Shown: positions 1,869-18,426, counted from the stretch's first letter. The stretch: DNA of 32,000 bases from Geotalea daltonii FRC-32 (GCF_000022265.1 NC_011979.1:3570001-3602000); one strand, 5' to 3'. A program made the numbers and translations. Notes: generated by a model from the sequence alone, not told the origin.

Positions 1869-2974
1869 AAGGTTTTTCCATCGCATTTTTCGGGTCGAGC
1901 CTGGTCTCTTCCTACTGGAACGGAGCAGCCACCTATTACCGTGGCCTGATCTGCGCCCTCCATGCACGGGGCCACAGGGTAACTTTTTACGAGCCGGATG
2001 CCTTTGATCGGCAGCAGCACCGGGACATGGAAGATCCCCCCTGGGCGAAGGTACAGGTTTATTCGGCGACAGAGGAAGGTGTCTTTCGCTCTCTTGAAGC
2101 GGCCATGGGGGCAGATATAGTCGTCAAGGCCAGCGGCGTCGGGGTATTTGACGAGCTCCTGGAGAAAGAGGTGCTCTCCCTGAAGACGGCCGATAACAAA
2201 GTCGTTTTCTGGGATGTGGATGCCCCGGCAACCCTGGAGCGGATCAGTCACAATCCCCACGATCCTTTCCGCAGCCTCATTCCCGGCTATGACCTGATCC
2301 TCACCTATGGCGGCGGCGATCCCGTAGTTGACGGCTATGGCTCTTTCGGCGCCAGGGAATGCATCCCGGTCTACAACGCACTTGACCCGGACACCCATCA
2401 CCCGGTCCCCTCCGACCATCGTTTCTGTGCCGATCTGGCCTTTTTGGGCAATCGCCTCCCGGACCGGGAAAAACGGGTGGAGGAATTCTTTCTCAGAACC
2501 GCCGCCAGCCTTCCCCACAAAAGGTTTCTCCTGGCAGGAAGCGGCTGGGACGACAAACAGCGACCACGAAATGTGGACTACCTGGGGCATTTGGGGACGG
2601 CCAGTCACAACGCCTTCAACTGCAGCCCGCTGGCTGTTCTCAACATCAGCCGGGAAAGCATGGCGAAGAACGGCTTTTCACCCGCCACCAGGGTCTTCGA
2701 GGCGGCCGGTGCGGGAACATGCATCATCACCGACAGCTGGCAGGGGATCGAGCAGTTCTTTGAGCCGGGCAAGGAAATACTGGTAGCCGGCTCGGGGGAA
2801 GAAGTTGCGGATATTCTGGAACGCCTGACCCCCAGGGAAGCATCCATGGTCGGCCTGCATGCCTTCGCCAGGGTCCGGGCCGAGCATACCTATGCCCACC
2901 GGGCCAGGCAGGTGGAAGCCATTTTTATGGAAGAAGAATCGAGCATGGGCTCATATGCAGGAGGGGCAGCATGA
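1865..2974 (+). CDS. CgeB/YkvP-like glycosyltransferase, paralog 2 of 3
   Basis: ATGA start/stop overlap with the upstream gene (1865-1868). FFGSSLVSSYWNGAATYYRGL and NISRESMAKNGFSPATRVFEAAGAG...WQGIEQFFEPGKEIL are closely parallel to ORF 2971-4086. Confidence 0.8.
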   Translation: MKGFSIAFFGSSLVSSYWNGAATYYRGLICALHARGHRVTFYEPDAFDRQQHRDMEDPPWAKVQVYSATEEGVFRSLEAAMGADIVVKASGVGVFDELLEKEVLSLKTADNKVVFWDVDAPATLERISHNPHDPFRSLIPGYDLILTYGGGDPVVDGYGSFGARECIPVYNALDPDTHHPVPSDHRFCADLAFLGNRLPDREKRVEEFFLRTAASLPHKRFLLAGSGWDDKQRPRNVDYLGHLGTASHNAFNCSPLAVLNISRESMAKNGFSPATRVFEAAGAGTCIITDSWQGIEQFFEPGKEILVAGSGEEVADILERLTPREASMVGLHAFARVRAEHTYAHRARQVEAIFMEEESSMGSYAGGAA

Positions 2975-4086
2975 AAATAGTCATTTTCGGTCTTTCAATA
3001 ACATCCTCATGGGGAAACGGCCATGCCACAACCTATCGGGGGCTGGTGCGGGAACTGGCAAAGCTCGGCCATGAGATACTGTTCCTGGAGCGGGACGTGC
3101 CGTGGTACGCAACGAGCCGGGATCTCCCCTCCCCCCCCTATTGCCGGACGGTGCTCTATAACTCGGTGGATCTGCTCCTGAGTGACTACGGACGAGAGAT
3201 CATCGAAGCCGACTGTGTCATCGTCGGCTCCTATGTGCCGGACGGCATCGAAATCGGCAGATGGGTGACACGCAAGGCCAAGGGCATCACCGCCTTCTAT
3301 GACATCGACACGCCGGTGACCCTGGCAAAACTGGAACGGGGGGACTGTGAATACCTCAACCCCGAACTGATACCCATCTACCGTCTCTACCTTTCCTTTA
3401 CCGGCGGGCAGATCCTGGAGCGCATCAGGGAACAGTATGGGGCACGGGAAGCAGTGCCGCTCTATTGCTCGGTGGACCCGGAGGTTCATTACCCCATGCA
3501 GCAGCCTGCCAGATGGGACCTGGGCTACCTGGGCACCTACAGCACCGATCGTCAGTCCCCCCTGGAGCGCATGCTCTGCGAAACCGCCAACCTTTGGAAA
3601 GAAGGACGTTTCGTCGTCGCCGGCGCCCAGTATCCGGCGGGAATCGCCTGGCCGGACAACATGAAACACATCGAGCATCTCCCCCCGGAGCAGCATCGGG
3701 ATTTCTATAGTGCCCAGCGTTTTACCCTCAATATCACCAGAAAATACATGATCCAGGCAGGCTATTCCCCCAGCGTCCGCCTGTTCGAGGCGGCTGCCTG
3801 CGCCGTGCCGGTCATCAGCGACCAGTGGCCCGGCATCGAGGAGTTTTTCATCCCCGGCGAGGAGATCCTTTTGGCCTCCACAGCCGAAGAGGTACTGGGT
3901 TATCTGCGGGAGTTGTCCGATGAGGACCGTCAGGCCATGGGCCAGCGGGCTCGCAAGAGGGTGCTCCGGTCACACACCGCCGGACGCAGGGCGACCGAAC
4001 TTTTAAACTACATCGCCGGCTGTGAACAATTCAGAAGTAAACTTCCTTTATCAGGTGGTACCCATTATGGACTATGCCGATTCTGA
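2971..4086 (+). CDS. CgeB/YkvP-like glycosyltransferase, paralog 3 of 3
   Basis: ATGA overlap at 2971-2974. IFGLSITSSWGNGHATTYRGL and NITRKYMIQAGYSPSVRLFEAAACAVPVISDQWPGIEEFFIPGEEIL match paralog 2. Confidence 0.8.
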   Translation: MKIVIFGLSITSSWGNGHATTYRGLVRELAKLGHEILFLERDVPWYATSRDLPSPPYCRTVLYNSVDLLLSDYGREIIEADCVIVGSYVPDGIEIGRWVTRKAKGITAFYDIDTPVTLAKLERGDCEYLNPELIPIYRLYLSFTGGQILERIREQYGAREAVPLYCSVDPEVHYPMQQPARWDLGYLGTYSTDRQSPLERMLCETANLWKEGRFVVAGAQYPAGIAWPDNMKHIEHLPPEQHRDFYSAQRFTLNITRKYMIQAGYSPSVRLFEAAACAVPVISDQWPGIEEFFIPGEEILLASTAEEVLGYLRELSDEDRQAMGQRARKRVLRSHTAGRRATELLNYIAGCEQFRSKLPLSGGTHYGLCRF

Positions 4087-4852
4087 CGGTATTTCCGACA
4101 AAATAAAAGCCCTTTCCCCCTGGTTCCACAACCTGCACTTCGAGGATGGCACCCAGACCGCGCCGGACCATTTCCTGGGGGATTTCCCCAGATTCAAGTG
4201 GCTGCAGCTGGCACCCTTCATACCGGAGGATTTGAGCGGCTGCCATGCCCTGGATATCGGCTGCAATGCGGGGTTTTATACCTTCGAGTTGGCCAGGCGC
4301 GGGGCAGAGGTGACCGGTATCGACATTGACCAGCGCTACCTGGAGCAGGCCGACTGGGCGGCCCGGCAATACGGGCTTCAGGACAGGGTAACCTTCAGGC
4401 AGATGCAGGTCTACGACTTGGCGCGGGAGAAGGGAGAGTACGATCTGGTCCTCTTCATGGGTGTCTTCTATCATCTGCGCTATCCGCTGCTGGCCCTGGA
4501 CATCATCGCCCAGAAGGTAAAGGGAATGATGGTCTTCCAGACCCTGGCCATGCCCGGCAAGGAGATCTACAAGCAGGTGGACCACCCCATCAACGAAAGG
4601 GCTTCCCTTCTTGAGCCCGGCTGGCCCAAGATGGCCTTCATCGAATACCGCTTTGCAGGCGATCCCACCAACTGGTGGATACCCAATCACGCCGCCGTAG
4701 AGTCTTTGCTCAGATCAGCCGGCATGCGCATCACCGGCTATCCCGGACACGAAATATACCTCTGCGAACCAGACCATGAGGCGCCATCGTGCATCAGCAC
4801 CTGGAACCGGGAGGAGTACCTGGCGGCGCTGGGGGAAAATCCGGGCCGGTGA
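4067..4852 (+). CDS. Class I SAM-dependent methyltransferase, CmoB/DUF1698-like
   Basis: Motif I ALDIGCNAGFYTFELARRGA, an acidic post-I residue (TGIDID), and LFMGVFYHLRYP. ATG 4067 (alternative 4022) overlaps the end of the preceding gene. Confidence 0.8.
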   Translation: MDYADSDGISDKIKALSPWFHNLHFEDGTQTAPDHFLGDFPRFKWLQLAPFIPEDLSGCHALDIGCNAGFYTFELARRGAEVTGIDIDQRYLEQADWAARQYGLQDRVTFRQMQVYDLAREKGEYDLVLFMGVFYHLRYPLLALDIIAQKVKGMMVFQTLAMPGKEIYKQVDHPINERASLLEPGWPKMAFIEYRFAGDPTNWWIPNHAAVESLLRSAGMRITGYPGHEIYLCEPDHEAPSCISTWNREEYLAALGENPGR

Positions 4853-4877
4853 AAACCTCGATTTTAATCCGCGTTTT

Positions 4878-4913
4878 CCATGGCTGGGCAGCAATGCCCG
4901 GCCATTTATTTTT
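4878..4913 (+). terminator. Rho-independent terminator of the GT/methyltransferase operon
   Basis: Hairpin CCATGGCTGGGCA / ATGCCCGGCCAT followed by TTATTTTT, 26 nt after the stop codon. Confidence 0.7.
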
Positions 4914-5033
4914 CCCACCTCTTGCTTCTCACCCAATACTGATTTTAATTTTTCCAATTGAGTTGCACACATTTTTGGTGTAGTGATTGTGGTGGCTGGC
5001 ACTTGGTTGTTAATCGGCAGAAAAATCCCACCA

Positions 5034-5109
5034 GATGGGAATAATCCGTACTATGGCCCCAGATTTCTCCTGATGGGAATAATCCGTACTATGTCCCCAG
5101 ATTTCTCCT
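5034..5109 (+). repeat. Tandem direct repeat, 2 x 38 bp
   Basis: GATGGGAATAATCCGTACTATG[G/T]CCCCAGATTTCTCCT occurs at 5034-5071 and 5072-5109 with one mismatch. Confidence 0.95.
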
Positions 5110-5137
5110 TCGAAGTGAAGTTCGAAAGGAACAGATG

Positions 5138-5195
5138 GTTCAACCAGCGCCAAGACCGGTCTAAAAACCGCCGGTCAGGCTTTTGGACGTTGGTC
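5138..5195 (+). repeat. attC-like imperfect palindrome (copy 0 of a 3-member family)
   Basis: GTTCAAC-CAG-...GACCGG-TCTAAAAACCG-CCGGTC...-GTTGGTC. The outer AAC/GTT cores are complementary and there is an inner stem with bulges. Confidence 0.55.
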
Positions 5196-5202
5196 AAAAA
5201 AT

Positions 5203-5685
5203 ATGAGAAAAGAAAAACTACAAAAATTCCCATCCGAATCTACCCTTGAAGTCGCCAGTGGAGCAATTATTACGTTGGGCATCTACTTGCTTTTTTGGCG
5301 ACGTAACCACGGTAGAGCGATCAATCAACTTCTGCCTGAAAACCAGATAAGTGAAAAGTGGTATACCACATGCCTTTGGCTGAAAATCGCTATTGCTGCA
5401 TTTGCCGTAACTAAAATATTTGTTCCACATCCTGCTGTTAAAATTATTCTTCAACATTTAGGAAACGTCAGCTGGGTCTTGGAAATCATCTGGAACTTTA
5501 AAATCAGAAGCAGAATGAACTTAATTCTTGAAAGCCAATGGAAGACATCATCATGGTACAGCGCTTGTTGGACTTTCATATTTGGCGCTATTTACCTGCA
5601 ATACAAGCTGAACTGCCTCAAGAAGGAAGAAGGCCTGAGTATTGAGCCGGATAAAAATATCGATTTAGCCCAAAAGGCTGACTAA
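5203..5685 (+). CDS. Small integral membrane protein, DUF4234-like
   Basis: AT-rich ORF starting 13 nt after the GTT core at 5189. It has hydrophobic segments, and TLGIYLLFWRRNHGRAINQ and FGAIYLQYKLNCL resemble the two signature blocks I remember for DUF4234. Confidence 0.55.
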   Translation: MRKEKLQKFPSESTLEVASGAIITLGIYLLFWRRNHGRAINQLLPENQISEKWYTTCLWLKIAIAAFAVTKIFVPHPAVKIILQHLGNVSWVLEIIWNFKIRSRMNLILESQWKTSSWYSACWTFIFGAIYLQYKLNCLKKEEGLSIEPDKNIDLAQKAD

Positions 5686-5709
5686 GTCTTGATAATCAAT
5701 AGAGGCGAT

Positions 5710-5782
5710 TCCCAACCAGCCCCATGGACGCCGACCGCCATAAAACCCTGGGCGGGCGGGTCATGGGGGCACCCCGTTGGTC
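5710..5782 (+). repeat. attC-like imperfect palindrome (copy A)
   Basis: TCCCAAC-CAG-CCCCATGGACGCCGACCGCC-ATAAAACCCTG-GGCGGGCGGGTCATGGGGG-CACCCC-GTTGGTC. It is homologous to copies at 5138 and 10097, with different but still complementary stems. Confidence 0.6.
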
Positions 5783-5800
5783 GTAGGAAAAGGAGAGCAG

Positions 5801-6079
5801 ATGAAAACCGAAGAAATTGAAGAGATCAGAAAAGAAGTTGCAAAAGTGGCTCACATTTTAGCAACACCTATTGATTTCGATAAGTTAATAAGTGATGGCC
5901 TGCTCAAACAAGTCGGCACATCATACTACACAGACAACGTGCATGCGCTTCCGGAAAATATTTCAAAAAAAATAAAAACCTTCACCCCGACAAAAAAAGG
6001 GCTGAAGCTGACATTCTACAAAGAAACCAAAAAGATGATAAAGCTAGCAAAAGACACAGAGCATTTACGAGATAAATGA
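5801..6079 (+). CDS. Hypothetical protein (92 aa, Lys-rich)
   Basis: ATG 5801 is preceded by AAAGGAGAG. The track start at 5777 is the TTG of the GTTGGTC core. No family recognised. Confidence 0.5.
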   Translation: MKTEEIEEIRKEVAKVAHILATPIDFDKLISDGLLKQVGTSYYTDNVHALPENISKKIKTFTPTKKGLKLTFYKETKKMIKLAKDTEHLRDK

Positions 6080-6134
6080 TTTAAACGAGTCAGCACCTTG
6101 AACTAAAGGATTTTTCCGTGAAGGGGTAAGGTCA

Positions 6135-6587
6135 ATGAATACAGCTCTCATTGCAGGCTTATTTGCTTTTATAGGAGGTATCATTGGGCAGCTTCTAAAC
6201 CGAAACACACAACGGGAAACGTGGCTTTTACAAAAAAGGGCAGAGGTATTCTCTGAATATCTTGCTGCTGTTGAAAAGTATAATCAGGAATTATCAAAAA
6301 TTGTAGAAATGAATCTCAATAGTTCAGAAGAATGGAGACTAAGAACCGATGCAAGGAACGCGGTGAGAATATCTGAAAAGATTGTCTGTTTATATTTATC
6401 AGACGATAACAAAGAAGAGTTCAGAACTTTAGTTGAAAATTACTTTGACTTTGAACCTGATATTTATACGGATGGCGTTTTTGACACAGACAAATTAAAA
6501 ACATGTTGGGACCCACATTTTAAGATCGAAGATAACATCCAGAAGTTATTTGAAAAAAATATCTCTGATATATCTTGGTATAAGTAA
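6135..6587 (+). CDS. Hypothetical protein with a single N-terminal transmembrane helix (150 aa)
   Basis: MNTALIAGLFAFIGGIIGQLL is followed by a helical soluble part. AAGGGGTAAGG upstream is RBS-like. No family recognised. Confidence 0.5.
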   Translation: MNTALIAGLFAFIGGIIGQLLNRNTQRETWLLQKRAEVFSEYLAAVEKYNQELSKIVEMNLNSSEEWRLRTDARNAVRISEKIVCLYLSDDNKEEFRTLVENYFDFEPDIYTDGVFDTDKLKTCWDPHFKIEDNIQKLFEKNISDISWYK

Positions 6588-6632
6588 AAATAATGGAGCG
6601 GTGAAGCACGCTCACCGCCCACGACGTTGGAA
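6588..6632 (+). other. Degenerate attC-like site
   Basis: Hairpin GGAGCGGTGA/TCACCGCCC, a 5-nt spacer, then GTTGGAA. The 3' half matches the family, but the 5' core reads AAATAAT instead of ..AAC. Confidence 0.3.
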
Positions 6633-6660
6633 GCATAGAAAAGACTTCATCGGGGTACAA

Positions 6661-7020
6661 ATGAGAAAGTCAGGTTTTGTCGGAGAGCAAGAAATCTATC
6701 TTGTTAAAGGATACGCTGGGGTGCTTTCTTGGATTAGTAACGTTAAAAGCACAGAGAGATTTACTGACATAGAATTGATTTTTTATTCTACTGTTTTTCA
6801 ATCAGGGATACAGCAGTATATTTTCCCAGAGTCTGTTTCCGATAGAACATCGACTGTTAGTTTCGTCAAGAATGGGACGAATTCCGGGACGAATTCCGGG
6901 GACACCTTACTTGGACGAATTCCGGGGACACCTAATGACGAATTCCGGGGACTGACGAATTCCGGGGACGACGAATTCCCAACGAATTCCGGCAACGAAT
7001 TCCGGGGACACCTTACTTAA
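6661..7020 (+). CDS. Possible cassette ORF whose 3' part runs into the REP array (probably disrupted)
   Basis: ATG 6661 in an open frame. From about 6878 the translation is just repeat-encoded (TNSGTNSGD...EFRG). No RBS is evident. Confidence 0.2.
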   Translation: MRKSGFVGEQEIYLVKGYAGVLSWISNVKSTERFTDIELIFYSTVFQSGIQQYIFPESVSDRTSTVSFVKNGTNSGTNSGDTLLGRIPGTPNDEFRGLTNSGDDEFPTNSGNEFRGHLT

Positions 7021-7150
7021 TTACCGGCAACGAATTCCGGGGACACCTTACTTAATTACCACTTGACTTATAAGAAGCATTAAATTAATTTCTGCACATG
7101 GCACGTATCGCTCGCGTCAACGAATTCCGGGGACACCTTACTTAATTACC
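6878..7150 (+). repeat. REP-like array, left side of the RAYT gene (10 copies of the ACGAATTCC(GGGGA) core)
   Basis: The core is counted by eye at irregular 12-35 nt spacing. Three long copies read GGCAACGAATTCCGGGGACACCTTACTTAATTACC (6991, 7026, 7118). Confidence 0.9.
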
Positions 7151-7207
7151 ACTTGACTTATAAGAAGCATTAAATTAATTTCTGCACATGGCACGTATCG
7201 CTCGCGT
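7028..7207 (+). repeat. Perfect 90-bp tandem duplication covering the REP copy, promoter and first 20 nt of the RAYT CDS
   Basis: 7028-7117 is identical to 7118-7207 (90/90 by eye). Confidence 0.95.
7153..7181 (+). promoter_or_regulatory. Putative sigma70 promoter of the RAYT gene (near-leaderless)
   Basis: TTGACT (7153-7158), a 17-nt spacer, then TAATTT (7176-7181). The ATG lies 7 nt downstream with no visible RBS. The same module is duplicated at 7063-7091. Confidence 0.4.
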
Positions 7208-7850
7208 AATAGCAACCGGCATCCCTCACCATGTTACTCAACGTGGCAATCGGCGATTGACAACCTTCTTCGGAGATGAGGACTACCAGAGCTATATTGA
7301 TCTCATGGCCGAATGGTGCCGGAAGTGTGGTGTGGAAATATGGGCATACTGTCTGATGCCTAATCATGTGCATCTTATCGCCGTGCCGGAGAGTGAAGAC
7401 GGGTTGCGGAGAGGGATTGGAGAAGCACACAGGCGATATAGTCGGATGGTTAACTTCCGGCAAGATTGGCGAGGGCATCTCTGGCAAGGAAGATTTGCCT
7501 CCTTTCCGATGGATGAATCCTATCTTTTAGCAGCGGCCCGATATGTAGAAATGAATCCAGTACGAGCCCACCTTGTACCGGAACCGGAATTATGGCCCTG
7601 GAGCAGCGCACGAGCGCATATGGCGGGCGCAGATGATCAATTGGTAAAGGTGGCCCCGCTTCTGGAGATGGTTGGGGATTGGAAACTTTTTCTTAGTGCA
7701 GCAACTGATGAAGAGATGGAAAAGATAAGACGCCACGAGCGAACCGGCAGACCTTTGGGTTCAGACGGTTTTGTAAATCAACTGGAGTCGGCCCTGGACC
7801 GCATGCTGACGCGCGGAAAGCCAGGCCCAAGGGGCAGGAGAATTAAGTAA
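7188..7850 (+). CDS. REP-associated tyrosine transposase (RAYT, IS200-like Y1/HUH, COG1943-type)
   Basis: GIPHHVTQRGNRR, HUH motif LMPNHVHLI, GHLWQGRF, and the catalytic Tyr block ARYVEMNPVRA..WPWSS. The gene is flanked by inverted repeats. Confidence 0.85.
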   Translation: MARIARVIATGIPHHVTQRGNRRLTTFFGDEDYQSYIDLMAEWCRKCGVEIWAYCLMPNHVHLIAVPESEDGLRRGIGEAHRRYSRMVNFRQDWRGHLWQGRFASFPMDESYLLAAARYVEMNPVRAHLVPEPELWPWSSARAHMAGADDQLVKVAPLLEMVGDWKLFLSAATDEEMEKIRRHERTGRPLGSDGFVNQLESALDRMLTRGKPGPRGRRIK

Positions 7851-7929
7851 GGTGTCCCCCGAATTCCGTCCCGCGCGGAAAGCCAGGCCCAAGGGGCAGG
7901 AGAATTAAGTAAGGTGTCCCCCGAATTCC
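7811..7929 (+). repeat. 62-bp-period tandem duplication of the RAYT 3' end plus right inverted repeat
   Basis: 7811-7867 is identical to 7873-7929 (57/57), including the last codons, the stop and the inverted repeat. Confidence 0.95.
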
Positions 7930-7976
7930 TCCCCCGAATTCCGTCCCCCGAATTCCCAGTCCCCCGAATTCCCGTC
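7841..7976 (-). repeat. REP-like array, right side of RAYT (5 copies, inverted relative to the left array)
   Basis: TCCCCCGAATTCC cores lie at about 7857, 7919, 7932, 7946 and 7963. Confidence 0.9.
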
Positions 7977-7977
7977 C

Positions 7978-8008
7978 ATCGGGTAGTGCGGTCCAAGCCC
8001 GCACACCC
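7978..8008 (-). other. Hairpin plus terminal 9-mer shared with the group II intron 3' end at 9807-9840 (possible solo domain VI)
   Basis: ATCGGGTAG followed by GTGCGG/CCGCAC inside GGG(T)/(A)CCC. The architecture matches 9807-9840, with a different inner stem. Confidence 0.3.
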
Positions 8009-8023
8009 TCAGCCCCGTTGAAA
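8003..8023 (+). other. 3' half of an attC-like site (GTTGAAA core)
   Basis: CCCTCAGCCCCGTTGAAAGG parallels GCTCTCAGCCGTTGAACAG at 9233-9251. The NHL ORF starts 13 nt after the G|TT. Confidence 0.35.
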
Positions 8024-8029
8024 GGAGAA

Positions 8030-9151
8030 ATGATGAGGAGAATCTTTATACGAACCGCACTTGCCGCAGCAATTGTTTCAGCTTTGTCACTTGGAGGATG
8101 CGGCAGTAATCAGAATGGCATTTCTACAATTCAAATGGGCGGTGCTAAACAGGGAAATCTCCTCACGCTTACTGGAACGGTATCCGTTCTTGCAGGTCAG
8201 GCACCGCAAATGGGTACAGCCGATGGAACCGGTTCAGCGGCTCGATTTAATGCTCCCTCCGGTATAACGACCGACGGTACTAACCTCTATGTGGCGGACA
8301 CAGGAAATAATTTAATCCGCAAAGTAGTGATTACGACCGGTGCAGTTACTACACTTGCAGGGACAGTTGGGACAGGTACTGCCCAAACGAGTGGATCAAC
8401 CGATGGAACAGGCTCTGCGGCTAAGTTCAACGCTCCATTTGCCATTACCACCGATGGAACAAACCTTTATGTCGCTGACACAAACAACAATACAATTCGT
8501 AAAGTAGTCATTGCGACTGGTACAGTTACAACTTTGGCAGGCAGTGTCGGGATACCAGGCTCAGCTGATGGGATTGGCCCTGCAGGGCTGTTCAATTCAC
8601 CAGGTGGAATTACAACCGACGGCACAAACCTCTATGTGTCAGACACAGGCAACAGAACAATTCGTAAAGTTGTAATTGCAACTGGCGCCGTAACCACCCT
8701 TGCAGGCAGCGCCGGAACGCCTGGCTCAACCGATGGGGTCGGTCCGTCGGCCCTTTTCGGTACAGTATTCGGAATCACAACAGACGGAACGAGTCTTTTT
8801 GTCGCCGACACTGATAACAGCACAATTCGCAAAATCGTAATTGCGACAGGGATGGTAACTACTTTGGCCGGAAGCGCTGGGGTTAGTGGCATAGCTGATG
8901 GAACGGGCTCTACTGCCAAATTCAATGCACCATTTGGCATCACAACTGACGGTACAAACCTTTATGTAACTGATTCAAGACAAGGCTCAATTCGCAAAGT
9001 CGCAATTGCAACTGGTGTTGTGACAACTTTGGTAAATGGCAGTTCATTGACCACAATATCTCCTTTAAATTTTCCCTTAGGTATCTCGACTGATGGCCTA
9101 AACCTTTATGTTGCGGACACAGATAACAGCACTATCGACTTGATCAAGTAA
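8030..9151 (+). CDS. Lipoprotein with a six-bladed NHL-repeat beta-propeller
   Basis: Signal peptide and lipobox (ALSLGGC). There are six repeats of about 57-60 aa of the type FNAPxGITTDGTNLYVADTxNNTIRKVVIATGxVTTLAG. AAGGAG RBS at 8022-8027; ATG at 8030/8033. Confidence 0.85.
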   Translation: MMRRIFIRTALAAAIVSALSLGGCGSNQNGISTIQMGGAKQGNLLTLTGTVSVLAGQAPQMGTADGTGSAARFNAPSGITTDGTNLYVADTGNNLIRKVVITTGAVTTLAGTVGTGTAQTSGSTDGTGSAAKFNAPFAITTDGTNLYVADTNNNTIRKVVIATGTVTTLAGSVGIPGSADGIGPAGLFNSPGGITTDGTNLYVSDTGNRTIRKVVIATGAVTTLAGSAGTPGSTDGVGPSALFGTVFGITTDGTSLFVADTDNSTIRKIVIATGMVTTLAGSAGVSGIADGTGSTAKFNAPFGITTDGTNLYVTDSRQGSIRKVAIATGVVTTLVNGSSLTTISPLNFPLGISTDGLNLYVADTDNSTIDLIK

Positions 9152-9176
9152 TACTCCTACAAAGAAGAAGGCTAAC

Positions 9177-9248
9177 TTTCAACAAAGCGCGGCAGACGGT
9201 CTCCGCTTCGCTCCGCCGCTCCGCCGCTGCGGCTCTCAGCCGTTGAAC
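9177..9248 (+). repeat. attC-like site (different sequence family)
   Basis: TTTCAAC (9177-9183) and GTTGAAC (9242-9248) are complementary at 6/7 positions and flank a GC-rich, imperfectly pairing interior. The site lies between two ORFs. Confidence 0.4.
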
Positions 9249-9273
9249 AGCAAGGATAAAAGAGAGGGAGGTC

Positions 9274-9792
9274 ATGCAAATAAAAAAGGGATACTTAATC
9301 TTCTTGCTACTCTTTATGTGGCTTATTTTAACTGGCTGTGGGTCTAGTTCTTCTGATGCACAAGGAACTTCTTCTCTTCCAACAAACGAGAGCAAGGTTA
9401 CTGCAACTCAAGGGGTATGGGGCAATGTCTGGTTTTGGACGGGCAATTTTATGCCATCGGTTGCAGGCACTACAAACTCCTCTGGTAACATAACGCCTGT
9501 GGTTCGTGAAATTTTTGTCTATAAAGCCACCACGATAAGTGATGTCATGCCCTATTCTTTAGGAGAATTTTACTCATACATTCCCTCCGAGCTTGTTGCG
9601 AAAACGTCATCAGATGAGACTGGTTTCTTTCAAGTCACCCTTTCACCCGGCACCTACAGTATTTTTGTCAAGGAGGGCTCAGCGTTTTATGCTAACAAGT
9701 TTGATGGACAGGGCAGAGTCAACCCTGTAGAGGTAGTGCCTGGTGCAGTGACGAAACTTCAGATAGACATAAATTATCAAGCCACTTTTTAA
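9274..9792 (+). CDS. Small lipoprotein, possible carboxypeptidase-regulatory-like beta-sandwich
   Basis: Lipobox LILTGC, RBS GGGAGG, and GFFQVTLSPGTYSIFV, which is typical of CarboxypepD_reg-like folds (from memory). Confidence 0.6.
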   Translation: MQIKKGYLIFLLLFMWLILTGCGSSSSDAQGTSSLPTNESKVTATQGVWGNVWFWTGNFMPSVAGTTNSSGNITPVVREIFVYKATTISDVMPYSLGEFYSYIPSELVAKTSSDETGFFQVTLSPGTYSIFVKEGSAFYANKFDGQGRVNPVEVVPGAVTKLQIDINYQATF

Positions 9793-9807
9793 GAGAACGC
9801 GGTTCAA

Positions 9808-10002
9808 TCGGGTAGCCAGGGGTCTTAGCCCCCCAGCCCCCCACACCACCCGGCATGCGGGTCCGCACCGGGCGGTTCGTTGAAGTTACCGGGCCGTAGC
9901 CGGGTAGTGGATCTTCACCCACTGTTCTTTGACAGATACAAGACCTTGATCTTTCAGCCATTGATTGGTCATACCGTGCTGGGCTGCCAGTCGGCGGGGG
10001 GC
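9808..10002 (-). mobile_element. 5'-truncated group II intron remnant (IEP C-terminal codons, domain V, domain VI)
   Basis: The minus strand encodes ..RRLAAQHGMTNQWLKDQGLVSVKEQWVKIHYPATAR* (stop at 9886-9888), which resembles intron maturase C-termini. A domain V-like hairpin lies at 9845-9876 (ACCGCCCGG-TGCG-GACC-CGCA-[TG bulge]-CCGGGTGGT). A domain VI-like hairpin with a bulged A 7 nt from the end lies at 9807-9840. Confidence 0.6.
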
Positions 10003-10032
10003 CTTAAGGGGACGTGGGGCCTTAAGGGGACG
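9998..10032 (+). repeat. Tandem repeat, 2 x GGGGCCTTAAGGGGACG (18-bp period)
   Basis: Copies at 9998-10014 and 10016-10032, located at the truncation edge of the intron remnant. Confidence 0.9.
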
Positions 10033-10096
10033 GATTAGCACTGCGGGTTAGTCAACTAATGGGGTCTGCCCTTGAAGTGGGAAAATAAAAATGGAT

Positions 10097-10162
10097 TCCC
10101 AACGAGACCAGTGGACCCGGTCGCGTTAAACCTGCGTCGGGTCACCGGCCGAGCCGTTATAC
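10097..10162 (+). repeat. attC-like imperfect palindrome (copy B)
   Basis: TCCCAAC-GAG-ACCAGTGGACCCGGTCGC-GTTAAACCT-GCGTCGGGTCACCGG-CCGAGCC-GTTATAC. The 5' flank GATTCCCAAC is identical to copy A. Confidence 0.55.
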
Positions 10163-10306
10163 AACCCATATCTGAACGTGCGAGATATCTAAATGATTGA
10201 AATAAAGACCATAGCCCTATTCCTTATATACACGACCTGCTGCCGTTGGGGTTCCGGGGACATCCATGATAAGAATTAATTCACACCCATAAGGAGATTT
10301 CCCGAA

Positions 10307-11053
10307 ATGGACATCCCCCGGATATTCAACATCACCGAAAGTGCTCACCGCATCCATAACCCGTTCACACCCGAAAAACTCGCCACTCTCGGCGCGGCGC
10401 TGCGTCTGGAAACGGGGACCCGCGTGCTCGACCTCGGCAGCGGTTCGGGGGAGATGCTGTGCACCTGGGCACGCGATCACGGCGTCATCGGCACCGGCAT
10501 CGACATGAGCCAGTTGTTCACCGAGCAAGCGAAACTCCGTGCTGTAGAACTCGGCGTAACCGAACAAGTCAAGTTCATCCATGGCGATGCTACAGGCTAC
10601 GTCTCCGACGACAAGGCCGGTGTGGCAGCCTGTGTCGGTGCCACTTGGATCGCCGGGGGAGTCGCCGGCACTATCGAGCTTCTGGCGCGGAGCCTGCGCA
10701 CCGGAGGGATCATCCTCATCGGCGAGCCCTACTGGCGGCAGTTACCGCCGACGGAAGATGTCGCCAAGGGGTGTCTTGCCAACTCAATCTCCGATTTTCT
10801 CATGCTTCCAGAACTTCTCGCGTCTTTCGGCCACCTTGGCTGCGACGTAGTTGAAATGGTTCTGGCTGACCAAGACGGCTGGGACAGATACGAGGCGGCC
10901 AAATGGCTCACCATGCGCCGATGGCTTGAAGCCAATCCCGACGACGAGTTGGCACAAGATGTTCGAGCCAAACTGACCTCGGAACCCGAGCGCTACGCCG
11001 CTTACACGCGTGAATACCTGGGCTGGGGTGTGTTCGCGCTGATGCCGCGGTGA
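10307..11053 (+). CDS. Class I SAM-dependent methyltransferase
   Basis: Motif I VLDLGSGSGEM; GIDMS; IHGDA; GGIILIGEP. RBS AAGGAG lies upstream. Confidence 0.8.
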   Translation: MDIPRIFNITESAHRIHNPFTPEKLATLGAALRLETGTRVLDLGSGSGEMLCTWARDHGVIGTGIDMSQLFTEQAKLRAVELGVTEQVKFIHGDATGYVSDDKAGVAACVGATWIAGGVAGTIELLARSLRTGGIILIGEPYWRQLPPTEDVAKGCLANSISDFLMLPELLASFGHLGCDVVEMVLADQDGWDRYEAAKWLTMRRWLEANPDDELAQDVRAKLTSEPERYAAYTREYLGWGVFALMPR

Positions 11054-11139
11054 TGCGTTGGCGCATCCGGCGGATCGTCAACGGGTGCGGCGCAACAGCT
11101 GGTGGCTCGCCGAGATGTGAGTGAGCCTAGAAACAATGA

Positions 11140-11266
11140 AAGTTTGGTTTCACGTTCTTCCAGAAGCCGTAACCCGGCCCGGATCGCCTCGCTTGCGGCC
11201 TGCGTCGCCGCGCCTTGCCGGGAACCCAAATCCCTCGAAATCTTGCAGAGAACATTGCGTTGTCAT
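11140..11266 (-). pseudogene. parD-like (RHH) antitoxin remnant, frameshifted and C-terminally degraded
   Basis: The minus strand reads MTTQCSLQDFEGF in one frame. After an apparent 1-nt shift near 11225-11230 it reads GSRQGAATQAASEAIRAGLRLLEERETKL, the hallmark ParD helix. No parE partner is present. Confidence 0.5.
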
Positions 11267-11707
11267 CCCCGCAATCCACTCATTAGCAGAAAATAACACT
11301 CAGAGCTCCCCGCCACACAAAACAATCAACATCTTATTTTAAAAGGCTTTAAGCCTGTTGAGCTGCCAATCCATGCACGCTCTGCGTGTGTTTCTTTGGG
11401 GTAAATGCACGTTTTGCATAGTAGCAATTTATGAATACTTTGTTATGGTCTTTTTCGTCCGGATTTAATTAATGCAGTAAAACGTGCCAGTTGCGCAGCA
11501 TTACCATGGAGCAACAGAGGTGTCAGTCTATTTCCTTGATCATTACATCGGCCTCCAATTCTGACTCTTCAAGTCCTCTTACTTCATCCAGCCATGCCAT
11601 GACCGCGCAGCAGGGACCAGGCATTCCGCACCCACTAGCCGCACACTTCTGTTTCGCACGACATAAACCTGCTACCTATAGGTATTCACAGCAAAGGGAG
11701 GCTGTCC

Positions 11708-12772
11708 ATGCGTAAAAAAGTTTTGTTCAGAACCGGCTTGTTCGCCCTCAGCCTGCTCATGGTGATCCAGTTCACCTCGGGCACCCCCGGTGGAGCCACC
11801 AAAGCCGCACCGTGGAAGTTTGCCGTTCTCTGCGACAATCGCAGCAACCCCTGTGTACCCGGGGGTGGCGTTCAAGGGGTGAATGTGGAGGTGCTTGGCA
11901 AGATGGCTGCGGAGGTGGCTGCGGAAAAGGTGGATGTGGTGCTTGTGCCGGGGGACATTGCCCTGGGCAACGGCTATACCTGTACGCCGCCGACACCACC
12001 CCCCAATCCCGCCGATCAGCAGTACCAGCTCTGGCGGCAGACCATGAAGCCGGTCTACGACTCGGGTGCAAAGGTCTTGCCGGTCCGGGGCAACCACGAG
12101 ATGGACAAGGACGCAGTCTTGAGCGACTGGAGCAGCTGTCGCAAGCGGGTACCCATCGAATCGAAGCTGTTGGACGCCTACCGGTCCGTATTCAACGATC
12201 CATACCTGAAGAAAATCAGCCCCGATAGCCAAAAGGGCCTGACCTATGCCCTGCCCCACAAGAATGCCCTGTTCATCGGTTTCGACCAGATCACCGATCA
12301 GTTCCAGGTGGACCAGAAATGGTTCGACCGGGTCCTGGCCAAGAACAAGCGGGAACATCTGTTCGTCTTCGGCCACTATCCCGCCTTTGCAGTGAAGCAT
12401 AAAGACTGCCTGGCCTGCTATGGAGCGGCGCGGGATCGCTTCTGGAATGCCATCGGCAATGCCGGCGGCCGTCTCTACTTCTGCGGCCATGACCATTTCT
12501 ACGACCGGGCGATTATCCCGGACGCCAAAGGACGCCTGCTCCAACAGGTGCTGGTGGGTAACGGCGGCGCACCATTCGCTTCAACCACCGCACCCTATGC
12601 CGATCCCCGAGTCGAACCCGCCGAGCACATCGAAAATGCCTATGGCTATATGGTGGTAACGGTGGACGGGGACAGCGTCTCGGCAAAGCTGAAGGTGCTG
12701 GATCTCCCATCGGGAACGTGGCGGAACGCCGATGCCTTCTGCTACGCCCAGCGGCGCACTGCCGGAAAATAG
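11708..12772 (+). CDS. Exported calcineurin-like metallophosphoesterase
   Basis: Signal peptide MRKKVLFRTGLFALSLLMV. Motifs VPGDIALGN, VRGNHE, FGHYP, CGHDHFYDR. RBS AGGGAGG. Confidence 0.8.
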   Translation: MRKKVLFRTGLFALSLLMVIQFTSGTPGGATKAAPWKFAVLCDNRSNPCVPGGGVQGVNVEVLGKMAAEVAAEKVDVVLVPGDIALGNGYTCTPPTPPPNPADQQYQLWRQTMKPVYDSGAKVLPVRGNHEMDKDAVLSDWSSCRKRVPIESKLLDAYRSVFNDPYLKKISPDSQKGLTYALPHKNALFIGFDQITDQFQVDQKWFDRVLAKNKREHLFVFGHYPAFAVKHKDCLACYGAARDRFWNAIGNAGGRLYFCGHDHFYDRAIIPDAKGRLLQQVLVGNGGAPFASTTAPYADPRVEPAEHIENAYGYMVVTVDGDSVSAKLKVLDLPSGTWRNADAFCYAQRRTAGK

Positions 12773-12781
12773 CCCGCTGAT

Positions 12782-13696
12782 ATGACGCCGGTTTCCATCA
12801 GATATTTCGCCATCGAATGGCTTTCCAAACACGACGGCCCAGGGGCACGGGTCGTCGTCTTCCTCCAGGGCTGTCACTTTGCCTGCCCCTGGTGCCATTC
12901 GCCACACTCCAGCTTCGAATGGTCGCCGATCCTCTTCTTCAAGAACCTCTGCCTCTCCTGCAACCGCTGTCAGGAGGTCTGCCCCGAAGGATTGCGAGGG
13001 GCGCTGCCCACGAAAACCGCCGATATCAGCGCCCGTTGCCGCCGCTGCGGCGCCTGCGTGGTTGCCTGCCCCGCCTCCCGTCCGGGTGGGATGGCCAGTG
13101 CTCTGGTCTTGCCGACCCAGGAGGCCACGCCGGAGACGCTGTTCGCGACGATCCAGCCGCAGCTGGAAATGGTGCGCAAAATCGGTGGGCTGACCCTGAG
13201 TGGCGGCGAGGCCCTTCTCCAGGGAGAGGCGGTAGCCCACCTGCTCCGGCTGGCCCGCGATGCCGGCTTCCATACCACCGTGGAAACGTCCGGGCTCCTG
13301 CCCCTGGCGTGTTACCAGTCGATCGCTGCGCTCGTGGATTGCTGGCTGTTCGGTCTCCGCTCCGACATCCCCGGAGCAAAGGCCGCCGACCGTTTCGGGA
13401 TGCGGGGCAGCAACCTGCATTACCTTGCGTCCCTGCCGTCGCGTATCGTCGTCAGGAAACCGCTGGTGGCAGGTTATACCGACACTGAAGAGGAAATAGA
13501 GGTCACCATCGACGTCATGAAAGAATGCGGCGTCAGCGAAATCCAGCTGCTCCCCCTCAATCCCCATTCCGGCCATTATTACAGTGCTTTGGGACTGTCG
13601 TGTCCCGAAGCCACCAGAGCTACGCCGACGGCCGCAGCCGTCGCCACTGCCGTCAATCGTTTCACCGCATCGGGTTTTACGGTAACCGTCGGATAA
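12782..13696 (+). CDS. Glycyl-radical enzyme activating enzyme (radical SAM, two auxiliary ferredoxin-like clusters)
   Basis: CX3CX2C (GCHFACPWCHSP); CLSCNRCQEVCP and CRRCGACVVACP; SGGEALLQ. It begins 9 nt after the upstream gene. Confidence 0.9.
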   Translation: MTPVSIRYFAIEWLSKHDGPGARVVVFLQGCHFACPWCHSPHSSFEWSPILFFKNLCLSCNRCQEVCPEGLRGALPTKTADISARCRRCGACVVACPASRPGGMASALVLPTQEATPETLFATIQPQLEMVRKIGGLTLSGGEALLQGEAVAHLLRLARDAGFHTTVETSGLLPLACYQSIAALVDCWLFGLRSDIPGAKAADRFGMRGSNLHYLASLPSRIVVRKPLVAGYTDTEEEIEVTIDVMKECGVSEIQLLPLNPHSGHYYSALGLSCPEATRATPTAAAVATAVNRFTASGFTVTVG

Positions 13697-13733
13697 TCAA
13701 TAGTAATCGAGATGAAATAAAAGGAGATTCTGC

Positions 13734-16295
13734 ATGGAAAGAGCACTTCCCGTAGCAATGACCCCGAGAACCAAAGCCCTGCTTGAGGCGCTGAAGCGGC
13801 AGGGGCGGAAGAACCGGGCGGATGAGTGGTTCCGCAACAGCATGTTTCCCGATGTCGGCAAGGAATTTCCCCAGGAGCCGGTGATCGTCCGCACCGCCCT
13901 GGCCAGCGAGGCCATGCTGTGCGCCATGACCGACGAGCGCAATTCGCTCCATACCGGCACCTATGCCATCGCCGATGGTGAGCTGATCGTCGGTGTCCTC
14001 CCCATGGGCTCCAACGGCCTGGGCAAGGTTTTTCCCAATTACCTGACTGAGGACGAAAAGCGTGCCGCGCGGATCACCAATCGGACCGAACTGTCGCTCC
14101 TGGGACATAACACTGCCGATTACGACCGGCTGGTGCGCTACGGCATCCGCGGCATTCTGGAGACCTGCGAGAGCAAGAGTGCGGAAATCAAGGCCAAGCA
14201 GCCGCTTACCGAGGACGATCAGAACAAGCTCGATTTCTACCGGGCCGTGCGCATTGCCAGCGAGGCCGTGGTCGAGTATGCCGGCCGCTTCGCCGACCTG
14301 GCCCGGGATAAGGGGCGAACGGAGAGCGATCTCCGCCGACGGGCCGAACTGGCCGAGATTGAGCGGATCTGCCGCAAAGTGCCCCTGGAGCCTGCCGACA
14401 CCTTCCACGAGGCGCTGCAGAGCATCTGGTTCGTCCACACTGCCCTCCACGCCAGCATGAATCTCATCTCCCTCGGCCGGCTCGATCAGGTGCTGGCCCC
14501 CTACCTGGCGAGCACAGTCGAAAAAGGTGTGTACGACCCGGCCAAGGGGGTGGAACTGTTCGAGTGTTTCCTGATCAAGGCGGCGTGGCGGCTCAACTAC
14601 ACCACCGAATACCTGGTGCAGCAGGACCACATGGACTACAACGCCGCCCTGGGCGTCAACCCCTATTATCTGGACCAGCGGGCCGGCGCCAACAACTTCC
14701 TGCAGAACGTCATCATCGGCGGACTGAAGCCCGATGGCAGCGATGCCACCAACGACTGCACCTTCGTCATCCTTCGGGCCTACCGCAACGTCAACCTTCC
14801 TACCCCCGGCATCTATGTCCGCATGGGCAGCTCTTCGCCGGAGAACCTCAAGTTTGCCGTGGCAGAATCGCTCCACGAGACAGGAAACAACCCGTCGATC
14901 CTCAACGACGATGTCCTCATCCCCGCTCTGTACCGGGCCTTCTGCGAAGGGGAAGACCCGACCGACCGGGCACGCCTGGCCGAACTTAAGGCCGTGGTCA
15001 ACGACTACTGCGTGGACGGCTGCTGGGAACCGATCCTGAACGGCAAGAGCGACTGGACCTTCGGCATGATCAACGGTATGACCATCCTGGAGTGCTCCCT
15101 CAATAAGGGGGCGACCCTGGACAACAACCCCGGCACCCTCCGCGGCGGCAAGCTGAGCTACTCCTCCGGCGAGATCGCCAGTTATGGAGCGCTGCGGGAA
15201 TCCCTGCGCGGCCACCTGCAGTTCTTCGTCGATCAGTCCGCCTTCGGCCTCTACAAGTACTACATGACCGACGAGTACGTGGTCCCCTGCCCGCTCTTTT
15301 CCGCCTTCCTAGGCACCTGCCTGGAGCGGGGACGGGACAAAGCCTGGGGCGGCGCCGAGTACAACATCGGCGGCACCATCCTCACCGGTGTACCGAACAT
15401 GGTCAACACCGTCTGCGCCATGAAAAAATGGGTCTTCGACGAGGGCAAGTACCACCTTGACGACGTGCTGGAGGCGTTCCGCAACAACTTCGTCTCGCCC
15501 CAGACCACCAACCCGGCGTCCCAGCGCACCTACGACGCCATCCGGGTCGACTTTGCCACCAATAGCCCGCTCTTCGGCTCCAATCATCCCGAAGCCAACG
15601 CAGTCACCCGCTGGATCCTGGATGACTATTTCGATGCGGTGATGAGTTCCAAGTCCATGGCCGACCGAATCTTCCTCAAGAAGCCTGCGACGACCGAAGA
15701 AGAGCGCGAGGTAAAGCGGCTGCGTTACATTGCCGGCTACTTCGGCGAATCGTTCCAGGAAAAATTCGGCCCCCAGTTCAATATCAAGTTCACCGCCGGC
15801 TGCGGCACCTTCGAGCAGTATCCCCTCCAGGGAGCCGGCATTGCCGCCTCTGCCGACCGCGCCGCGGCAGCACCGCTGGCCCCCAACTTCACTCCCCCTC
15901 CCGGTACGCAGATAAATGGTATCGGCAACCTGCTCGCCTCGTTCAGCGGCCTCGGTCTCGACCGGTTAGGCGCGGGGGTCATCACCGACCTCTGCCTCGA
16001 CCAAAGCCAGAATGACCCGGAGGTGATCCGGGGGATCATGGAGCAGTTCATCGCCAACAAGGGGAATATGATGACCCTGGCCATCGGCAACAGCGCCGTC
16101 TACCAGACAATCTACGAACTTTCCTGGGCTGCGTCAAAGATGTCGGACCAGACGGAGGCGGTGCGCAAGCTTGAGGAATATTCCGCCATCAACGTCCGGG
16201 TCGGTGGTTGGCAAGCCCCCTTCATCACCATGTCACTGGACCAGCAGGAAAACTACATCAACCGCCCGGTTACAGCCGGGGGAGGTGCCCGATGA
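13734..16295 (+). CDS. Glycyl radical enzyme, PFL2/1,2-eliminase-like, substrate unknown
   Basis: 853 aa. The Gly-radical loop is NVRVGGW (Gly825, codon 16206-16208). The Cys loop DGCWEP (Cys430-x-Glu432, codon 15021) resembles dehydratase/lyase GREs. RBS AAAGGAG. Confidence 0.9.
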   Translation: MERALPVAMTPRTKALLEALKRQGRKNRADEWFRNSMFPDVGKEFPQEPVIVRTALASEAMLCAMTDERNSLHTGTYAIADGELIVGVLPMGSNGLGKVFPNYLTEDEKRAARITNRTELSLLGHNTADYDRLVRYGIRGILETCESKSAEIKAKQPLTEDDQNKLDFYRAVRIASEAVVEYAGRFADLARDKGRTESDLRRRAELAEIERICRKVPLEPADTFHEALQSIWFVHTALHASMNLISLGRLDQVLAPYLASTVEKGVYDPAKGVELFECFLIKAAWRLNYTTEYLVQQDHMDYNAALGVNPYYLDQRAGANNFLQNVIIGGLKPDGSDATNDCTFVILRAYRNVNLPTPGIYVRMGSSSPENLKFAVAESLHETGNNPSILNDDVLIPALYRAFCEGEDPTDRARLAELKAVVNDYCVDGCWEPILNGKSDWTFGMINGMTILECSLNKGATLDNNPGTLRGGKLSYSSGEIASYGALRESLRGHLQFFVDQSAFGLYKYYMTDEYVVPCPLFSAFLGTCLERGRDKAWGGAEYNIGGTILTGVPNMVNTVCAMKKWVFDEGKYHLDDVLEAFRNNFVSPQTTNPASQRTYDAIRVDFATNSPLFGSNHPEANAVTRWILDDYFDAVMSSKSMADRIFLKKPATTEEEREVKRLRYIAGYFGESFQEKFGPQFNIKFTAGCGTFEQYPLQGAGIAASADRAAAAPLAPNFTPPPGTQINGIGNLLASFSGLGLDRLGAGVITDLCLDQSQNDPEVIRGIMEQFIANKGNMMTLAIGNSAVYQTIYELSWAASKMSDQTEAVRKLEEYSAINVRVGGWQAPFITMSLDQQENYINRPVTAGGGAR

Positions 16296-18217: not shown

Positions 18218-18426
18218 CCTTATTCATGCCGGCGGATATTGCCAGGGAATCGCAGGACTGGTTCAACAGAAAAAATTTTTACCTGGTCAGCAATCGGCAA
18301 ATAGAGGATAACTGCATCAAGAAAGAGTTGCTCTCGGAATTACATGGTTTCGAGACCATTGCACCTTTGTATCAGTATCTATACAAAGTGGCAGCATACA
18401 AAATGTCCAACAAGAGAGGGCATTAA
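18214..18426 (+). CDS. Small hypothetical protein (70 aa)
   Basis: ATG 18214 overlaps the AOR stop (ATGA). Its TAA is immediately followed by the ATG of the next gene (18427). No family recognised; an alternative ATG lies at 18226. Confidence 0.45.
   Translation: MTLFMPADIARESQDWFNRKNFYLVSNRQIEDNCIKKELLSELHGFETIAPLYQYLYKVAAYKMSNKRGH

Follow-up and report, generated by a model that had tools for sequence, protein, structure and literature searches.

The subject of this account is a 32,000-nucleotide stretch of the chromosome of Geotalea (formerly Geobacter) daltonii FRC-32 (genes Geob_3248 onward; the whole stretch is called the window below), and in particular a run of small genes within it which, with a probability of about 0.85, represents a CALIN, i.e. 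a cluster of attC sites lacking an integron integrase: some five cassettes, partly eroded, lying at a recombination-prone spot behind the terminator of a conserved operon. The assignment specifically to a CALIN follows from the lack of any integrase, whether within the window or over the 8 kb preceding it, while the more basic proposal, that this is an array of integron cassettes at all, is supported by similarity to the attC sites of class 1 integrons, by the sharing of one attC family with otherwise unrelated contigs, by breakpoints that fall at the recombination cores, and by the presence of an intron inserted in one of the sites.

By the usual standard an attC site is an imperfect palindrome of about 57-141 nt that includes an unpaired spacer and, in its bottom strand, has extrahelical bases along the '' arm. 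Four complete attC-like sites are found here, all on the plus strand, together with two that are 5'-truncated and one that has been split by an intron. They are as follows (a slash marks the point of exchange in the core, G/TT; R1 and R2 are covariance models described further below):

5138-5195, plus strand: attC a, complete, GTTCAAC ... GTTGGTC, 58 nt, core G/TT at 5189; R2 46.1 bits, E 7e-10.
5710-5782, plus strand: attC b, complete, TCCCAAC ... GTTGGTC, 73 nt, core at 5776; weak R2 score of 9.9 bits.
6594-6632, plus strand: attC d, 5'-truncated, with L''-loop-L'-R' kept and R'' gone, core at 6626; R2 18.7 bits.
About 7981 to 8023, plus strand: attC e, a 3' remnant only, ...TCAGCCCC GTTGAAA, core at 8017, no R''; R2 12 bits, rank 6.
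9177-9248, plus strand: attC f, complete, TTTCAAC ... GTTGAAC, 72 nt, core at 9242; R1 24.9 bits, R2 23 bits.
9801-9806, plus strand: GTTCAA, the R'' stub of the site split by the intron.
10097-10162, plus strand: attC h, complete and the last recognisable site, TCCCAAC ... GTTATAC, 66 nt, core at 10156; R2 17.2 bits.

The complete sites thus range from 58 to 73 nt and all lie on one strand, the largest gap between them being 3.4 kb. In each, the 5' box ends in AAC and the 3' box starts with GTT (R'' being xYYCAAC and R' GTTRRRY-like); when compared with R'' RYYYAAC and R' GTTRRRY, the inverse AAC/GTT cores are present in 4/4 sites, with at most one mismatch per degenerate half. In the folded bottom strand of all four, an outer helix formed by the R box is followed by an internal loop and then by a long, imperfect stem, and in constrained folds all eight one-sided single-nucleotide bulges belong to the '' arm, which is the 3' arm of that strand, just as in seven class 1 attCs. 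In the case of attC b, the bottom-strand fold has a 5-bp R box, then an internal loop, then a stem with bulges mainly on the '' arm, the irregularities of this stem being two single-nucleotide C bulges and one 1x1 mismatch; the site is picked up by a strict descriptor scan, and its R'' is the same as that of attC h and of the attCs in a metagenome contig (L096) to be discussed later. For its part attC h, with its bulges on the '' arm, has its 5' end in common with attC b, while the 3' end of attC e has a form that is shared with attC f and with sites in two other contigs (the second in L083 and the first in L119).

The first covariance model, R1, was home-made from seven attCs of class 1 integron plasmids (those of aac(6')-29a, blaVIM-2, arr-3, aac(6')-Ib, aadB, aadA2 and dfrA5), included both the R-box and the L-box pairs, and was run over the whole window on both strands with filters off. 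Its top match is 9177-9248(+), that is attC f, at 24.9 bits and E 1e-4, with nothing else below E 1. The second, R2, was built from nine metagenomic members of the family and contains no sequence from the window; its alignment is a subset, a MAFFT alignment of all 13 family members having put R' out of register. When matches in the 32 kb window are ranked by R2, a, f, d (as 6578-6632) and h take the first four places, e (as 7970-8023) the sixth and b the eighth, all on the plus strand, so that all six candidates are within the top eight. In 1.02 Mb of control loci R2 gave no match at E<=1, and the placement of the candidates by this model is more than chance. For two of them, a and d, such scores are to be expected on account of direct homology (a has 91% identity with the member in L083, d 94% identity with part of that in L095). 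Simpler approaches had been dropped in favour of these models: scanning for AAC...GTT combined with a folding energy yielded too many matches in a GC-rich genome, while a stricter descriptor caught only two sites against a background of 24 matches in 1.37 Mb. A scan of metagenomes using TTCAACNNNGCGCN{20,50}GCCGTTGAA likewise returned almost only chance matches in coding DNA, together with one true family locus, L119.

Turning to the genes themselves, the array comprises about five promoter-less, co-oriented cassettes, each laid out so as to start at the TT of a G/TT core and to end in the imperfect palindrome of an attC:

5190-5776, plus strand: cassette 1, an open reading frame (ORF) for a DUF4234 membrane protein (5203-5685; Pfam PF14018) with attC b.
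5777-6626, plus strand: cassette 2, two hypothetical ORFs, 5801-6079 (92 aa) and 6135-6587 (150 aa), with no attC between them.
6661-6874, plus strand: cassette 3, the 5' fragment of a disrupted cassette ORF that runs into an array of repetitive extragenic palindromes (REP); an ORF of 6550-7020 reads through the repeats.
8018-9242, plus strand: cassette 4, an NHL-repeat lipoprotein ORF (8030-9151; Pfam NHL), having internal 165-nt repeats, with attC f.
9243-9806, plus strand: cassette 5, a 172-aa lipoprotein ORF (9274-9792) with the attC R'' stub GTTCAA.

Between the two genes of cassette 2 there is no attC: no structure was found in 6076-6136 and no model match in the gap, a weak R2 match at 6228-6276 (7.2 bits) falling within the ORF 6135-6587. 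The ORF fragment 6661-6874 has no family match. Much of this had been anticipated by an earlier reading of the window made from its sequence only (called the sequence-only reading below). The G/TT cores that it listed at 5189, 5776, 8017, 9242 and 10156 and the ATG codons that it assigned to them are all present, every ORF in 5203-11053 does lie on the plus strand, and Pfam bears out its list of gene contents (DUF4234, two hypothetical proteins, an NHL lipoprotein, the 172-aa lipoprotein, a methyltransferase and a ParD remnant). Its statement that each gene starts shortly after a core fails for the gene at 10307, the ATG of which is 151 nt from core 10156, while its statement that an attC-like element comes after each gene is correct for 5203-5685 and 8030-9151, true in a degraded form for 6135-6587 and 9274-9792, and wrong for 5801-6079, 7188-7850 and 10307-11053. 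The count of cassettes also had to be corrected, to about five; the gene at 7188-7850 is a REP-associated transposase, and the methyltransferase and ParD remnant cannot be called as cassettes.

One way to see whether these units behave as cassettes is to look for the same genes elsewhere and ask where the homology begins and ends. In several metagenome contigs attC-like elements of the family come behind small co-oriented ORFs: L095, L096 and L100 have two such elements apiece, while L083 and L119, with three apiece, are small arrays of the same attC family. The DUF4234 ORF recurs in L095 at 92% identity, with homology starting at window 5187 (core 5189) and an unrelated attC upstream. In L096-L099 the 92-aa ORF of cassette 2 recurs at 94% identity behind a different attC, the homology running from 5785, nine bases to the right of core 5776, to 6069; from this end point it follows that the 150-aa gene is not obligatorily linked to the 92-aa gene (both genes of cassette 2 are carried by L083). 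The cassette for the 172-aa lipoprotein is found in L100 at 93% identity, its preceding attC differing to the left of the GTT at 9242 and the sequence being the same from GTTGA onward. Lastly, attC a recurs at L083 4276-4329 (91% identity) between other genes, with homology that stops at GTT. On the evidence of these alignments the pattern of breakpoints is that which would be expected of integron cassettes, and the proposal in the sequence-only reading that breaks should coincide with the G/TT positions is borne out to within 9 bases at cores 5189, 5776 and 9242 (in L095, L096-L099 and L100 respectively).

A further line of evidence comes from the intron:

9807-9995, minus strand: 5'-truncated group IIC-attC intron, comprising domains V-VI (9807-9877) and the last ~36 codons of its reverse transcriptase/maturase (9886-9995).

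Domains V-VI match Rfam RF00029 at 40 bits (equal to the gathering score; E 2.4e-5), and the protein matches are to maturase C-termini. It was this minus-strand structure that the sequence-only reading had taken for an attC-like element after 9792. Introns of the group IIC-attC type have R'' on the bottom strand of an attC as their point of insertion and run antisense to the cassettes (PMC7923331), and a clinical case for comparison is the K. pneumoniae plasmid p1220-IMP (L221), where an antisense intron lies behind the blaIMP-4 cassette of a class 1 integron. There the junction reads TTTCTAAT/CGGGTAGCC..., and in the window GGTTCAAT/CGGGTAGCC...; the form ...TTCAAT/CGGGTAGCC (AAT/CGGGTAGCC) is common to p1220-IMP, L119, the corresponding locus of G. 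toluenoxydans (L003) and the window. Over domains V-VI these same four sequences align closely, with compensatory changes in the domain V helix. Contig L100 supplies the uninterrupted target attC (ATTCAAT CAG ... GTTAGAC), which taken with the junction shows that the intron sits in R'' on the bottom strand and reads in the opposite sense to the cassettes. What survives in the window is the 3'-terminal ~190 nt: the target attC beyond its R'' stub has been deleted, as have ribozyme domains I-IV and the greater part of the reverse transcriptase gene, so that 9807-9995 does not hold a complete ribozyme (domains I-VI) with an intact reverse transcriptase gene. Judging from the protein accession number (YP_002536457), a full-length intron of the G. 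daltonii genome, belonging to another cassette array, sits elsewhere in the chromosome; two protein searches for its protein gave short maturase fragments only. The L119 array, for comparison, holds an ORF-less group II intron, with domains I-VI detected, at the same R'' junction. A 9-nt string identical to the intron 3' junction, ATCGGGTAG, also occurs at window 7973-7984, before the attC e remnant, and may be the trace of a second, almost wholly deleted intron; to read 7981-8023 itself as domain VI of a second intron was considered and rejected as the main interpretation, there being no domain V before it and its 3' end being a typical L'-spacer-R' of the family.

Cassette 3 has been interrupted by a mobile element of a quite different kind:

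6875-7980, plus strand: an element like those of REP-associated tyrosine transposases (RAYT), within cassette 3, with a left REP array at 6875-7147, the gene at 7188-7850 and a right, inverted REP array at 7841-7977.

The ORF 7188-7850 encodes a Y1 HUH transposase (PF01797 Y1_Tnp, E 1.9e-13), but is best called RAYT-like because its score against NCBIfam NF047646 (63.4 bits) does not reach the RAYT cutoff of 80. Copies of the repeat GAATTCCGGGGAC number 11, seven direct ones to the left of the gene and four inverted ones to the right, as against 0.09 expected, and none occurs elsewhere in the window. Both ends of the element show tandem duplications, one of 90 bp (7028-7207, which takes in the first 18 nt of the gene) and one of 62 bp (7810-7933, which takes in the last 41 nt of the gene and an inverted repeat). 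The element interrupts the ORF that starts at 6661 and abuts the attC e remnant at 7981-8023; it is an invader of cassette 3 and not a cassette gene. Its right end is 99% identical in G. toluenoxydans (L003 11101-11350), where the flanking core DNA is only 92% identical, a difference that suggests recent movement of the RAYT-like element. The same hot spot in G. toluenoxydans (L003 10932-15125) contains a TIR/TPR gene, an integrase-core insertion sequence fragment, two RAYT remnants and a remnant of intron domains V-VI, the two RAYT remnants each having a different short flanking repeat unit but a common GGGACAC core.

All this said, there are observations that count against the CALIN reading, and these should be considered together. 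Of the four complete sites only attC f is significant with the class 1 model, a, b and h giving no match, while attC b has a low score with the family model too (9.9 bits). At 3 nt the 5' spacer is shorter than the 5 nt of the seven class 1 references, and the bulged base on the bottom strand is C here, whereas of the five references with an informative fold three have G and two have C. No integron integrase is linked to the attC family in any of the loci compared, nor was one found beside the matches of the metagenome scan. Finally, the DUF4234 ORF is joined to attC b in the window and to an unrelated, complete d-type attC in L095, and integrase recombination alone provides no explanation for this swap.

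The failure of three of the four complete sites to reach significance with R1 could equally be cited in support of a rather different view, namely that the locus is an insertion hot spot or genomic island of a generic kind, its hairpins serving as terminators, REP elements or homing sites of introns and having nothing to do with integrons. Such a view could also appeal to the non-cassette material (the transposase, the intron remnant, and a glycyl-radical enzyme/aldehyde:ferredoxin oxidoreductase block) that is held in the 13 kb stretch 4992-18232, and to the fact that group IIC introns can target terminators too (PMC7923331). It is nonetheless very unlikely: none of the four complete sites has a T-run or is called in a terminator scan, and all have inverse AAC/GTT cores, the expected length and strand-asymmetric bulges; one of them matches class 1 attCs at E 1e-4; the REP repeats occur only at 6875-7980 and are a sequence family with no relation to the sites; the intron belongs to the type specific for attCs, with a junction as in a class 1 integron; and ORFs shuffle between arrays with breakpoints at the cores, as cassettes would.

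For the DUF4234 ORF a more specific account might be considered within the cassette-array reading. Behind this ORF the window and L095 diverge at the stop codon and not at a core (window 5686-5710 and 6588-6632; L095 1170-1231), and it is this stop-codon junction that implies that some event other than core-site recombination took place. The 3' part of the complete L095 attC (GCCCAAC...GTTAGCT) matches window 6594-6628, with 94% identity to attC d, which is what identifies window element d as a 5'-truncated attC. In both the window and L119 a group IIC-attC intron lies between an ORF and an attC, and the same junction motif is seen in L003. Leon and Roy are said to have proposed that ORFs become joined to attCs when copies of the intron undergo homologous recombination with one another, cassettes being created or re-assorted in this way, and the occurrence of the DUF4234 ORF with two attCs, taken with introns in just this position, fits such a proposal. 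That the locus does record an exchange of attCs by a route other than integrase recombination is nonetheless rated as improbable.

The boundaries of the array, and the genes that adjoin it, are best considered in relation to the surrounding chromosome. The features concerned are:

4880-4913, plus strand: intrinsic terminator of the upstream conserved operon, a hairpin with a T-run found by terminator scan; left limit of conserved DNA.
5005-5137, plus strand: ORF-less leader with a 38-bp tandem duplication (5034-5109), unique to the G. daltonii genome among the loci compared.
10307-11053, plus strand: S-adenosylmethionine-dependent methyltransferase (Pfam), with no attC downstream.
11002-11229, minus strand: remnant of a ParD-type antitoxin (PF03693, E 3.6e-6, residues 10-31 only).

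Synteny was compared with G. toluenoxydans (L003), Geotalea sp. SG265 (L004) and a related metagenome-assembled genome (L005). Directly upstream of the array is a glycosyltransferase/methyltransferase operon that is syntenic in all three, and the terminator that the sequence-only reading placed at 4913 is indeed its end, the hairpin and T-run being at 4880-4913. Homology to the relatives stops at window 4992-5004 (from synteny BLAST and junction sequences), and conserved DNA restarts at window 18232 in L003, 19474 in L004 and 18426 in L005. The stretch that is unlike the relatives is therefore about 13 kb long (4992-18232), twice the size of the island first noted, and it is not one single insertion, as L003 keeps the last 37 nt of an oxidoreductase gene and the DUF2461-like gene of the window lacks its 5' part. 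The gene in question, for an aldehyde:ferredoxin oxidoreductase, ends at window 18217, its last 37 nt surviving at L003 14536-14572; it belongs to a block at 11708-18231 (metallophosphoesterase, glycyl-radical enzyme activase, PFL-like glycyl-radical enzyme and aldehyde:ferredoxin oxidoreductase) that is missing from the three relatives, and the surviving 37 nt imply that this block was lost in L003 and not gained in the window. The DUF2461-like gene is truncated at 18232. Two assemblies 100% identical to the window (L001 and L002) both end at 4979, the left edge of the island, and these breaks suggest a repeat or some heterogeneity there.

Composition agrees with the AT-rich island that had been described, the GC content being 0.34-0.46 in 5000-7400 and 0.45-0.51 in 8000-9800 as against about 0.58-0.62 in both flanks, with the low-GC part restricted to roughly 5000-9800. 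The array itself extends from 5005 to 10162, its right end being at about 10162, where the last attC ends, and not at the previously suggested 11400; no attC of the family is found outside 5138-10162, either in the rest of the window or in the loci of the relatives. The leader at 5005-5137 may be an ORF-less first cassette, and its duplication is one of two non-coding tandem duplications in the array that are perfect or nearly so, the other being of 18 bp (9998-10032). Beyond the right end, the methyltransferase cannot be called as a cassette, since there is no attC after it. It is a horizontally acquired and widely transferred gene, belonging to a 90%-identity cluster of 1866 members and recurring with 92% nucleotide identity in L085 (5973-6747), which is not an array and has an unrelated chromosomal context; about 110 nt downstream of it in L085 there is half of an attC-like motif (GGCCCAAC AATTC ...). 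Nor can the ParD fragment, which is on the opposite strand to the array, be called as a cassette.

The sequence-only reading had left it as an alternative whether the locus is a CALIN or the distal part of a larger sedentary chromosomal integron, with integrase and attI just outside the window. There are points that would suit the latter, in that the cassettes are co-oriented as in a sedentary integron and the G. daltonii genome has been reported to carry an integron cassette array (PMC3001079). For cassettes on the plus strand, however, the integrase would be expected upstream, and what lies upstream is the conserved syntenic operon, with no recombinase over about 13 kb; downstream there are metabolic and pyrimidine biosynthesis genes, and no further attC of the family in the window. 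More specifically, there is no PF00589 tyrosine recombinase among the large ORFs of the window (Pfam), in agreement with what had been noted before, and no integrase in the 8 kb upstream (read from a 100%-identical assembly contig). Beside the first cassette there is no intI, attI or Pc, only the conserved operon ending in its terminator, and the Rfam attI/leader model is absent both from a scan of 1-32000 at gathering thresholds and from a permissive E-value scan of 4800-11800, while being present in the class 1 control (L221). A larger integron is thus extremely unlikely, and the CALIN half of the alternative is the one that stands.

How such a CALIN might work can be sketched on the basis of general integron biology, and it may have arisen either by secondary-site insertion, through an integrase acting in trans, or by rearrangement of what was once an integron. 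The bottom strand of each attC would fold to a hairpin with its R box, unpaired spacer and extrahelical bases on the '' arm, and an integron integrase encoded elsewhere could then cut at G/TT so as to excise or capture cassettes in trans. What the window shows directly is an array under degradation: in one attC the bottom strand took up a group IIC-attC intron at R'', which was afterwards truncated; another cassette received a REP-associated tyrosine transposase together with its REP arrays; and two attCs are without their 5' halves. One may ask whether it is by now an inert relic, consisting of former attCs that can no longer be mobilised (for want of an integrase in the genome, or through decay of the sites), which would be a variant of the CALIN reading and not a departure from it. 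Two truncated attCs, a split one, a cassette disrupted by a transposase, and an attC family without a linked integrase at any locus all point that way, while four structurally complete sites, and near-identical cassettes in different contexts in several metagenomes, which imply recent mobility of the family, point the other way; on balance inertness is possible, but not the likelier state of affairs.

As regards systems already described, the locus resembles the CALINs of Cury et al. (2016, PMC4889954) in having two or more attCs on one strand at spacings below 4 kb and no intI in the vicinity, in being a small array (about five cassettes), and in holding cassettes of unknown function and no resistance genes. 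It is unlike them in being heavily eroded (two attCs truncated, one split, one cassette disrupted) and in the 3-nt 5' spacer of its family. With sedentary chromosomal integrons (Vibrio, Xanthomonas, and Geobacter with intI; PMC2426708) it has in common that it is chromosomal, that the functions of its cassettes are unknown, that the remnant of a toxin-antitoxin system is close by, and that its attCs belong to a lineage-specific family also seen in related metagenomic arrays; the differences are that intI, attI and Pc are missing from the locus, that there are only four complete sites, and that the attCs are quite divergent within the array. The intron is like the group IIC-attC introns S.ma.I2 and the Kl.pn introns (PMC3001079, PMC7923331) in its antisense insertion into R'' of the bottom strand, and in having a junction and domains V-VI as behind blaIMP-4, but is reduced to a 3' remnant of ~190 nt. 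Similarly, the transposase element recalls a REPtron (a RAYT between inverted REPs) in that a Y1 HUH gene lies between oppositely oriented arrays of short repeats, and departs from one in falling below the NCBIfam RAYT cutoff, in its tandemly duplicated termini and in its position inside an integron cassette.

CALINs are already known to be common, and in this sense the locus is a real but ordinary example; its unusual features are limited to the DUF4234 attC swap and to the nesting within 5 kb of three mobile systems that depend on single-stranded hairpins (the attC sites, the IIC intron and the Y1 transposase), a nesting that may come about because all three target the same folded strand. 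Another integrase-less array of the family is present in L119, a 512-kb metagenome contig (Ga0209464_10000002), where it occupies positions 2048-5467 and is flanked by housekeeping genes.

What emerges is one more documented integrase-less cassette array, in this case in a metal-reducing subsurface bacterium, the same cassettes of which circulate at 92-94% identity among uncultured relatives. These relatives provide natural before-and-after pairs, both for the insertion of an intron into an attC (the window and L100) and for the truncation of an attC (the window and L095). Since the attC family concerned, with its short 5' spacer, is mostly missed by a model based on clinical attCs, similar arrays may be under-counted.

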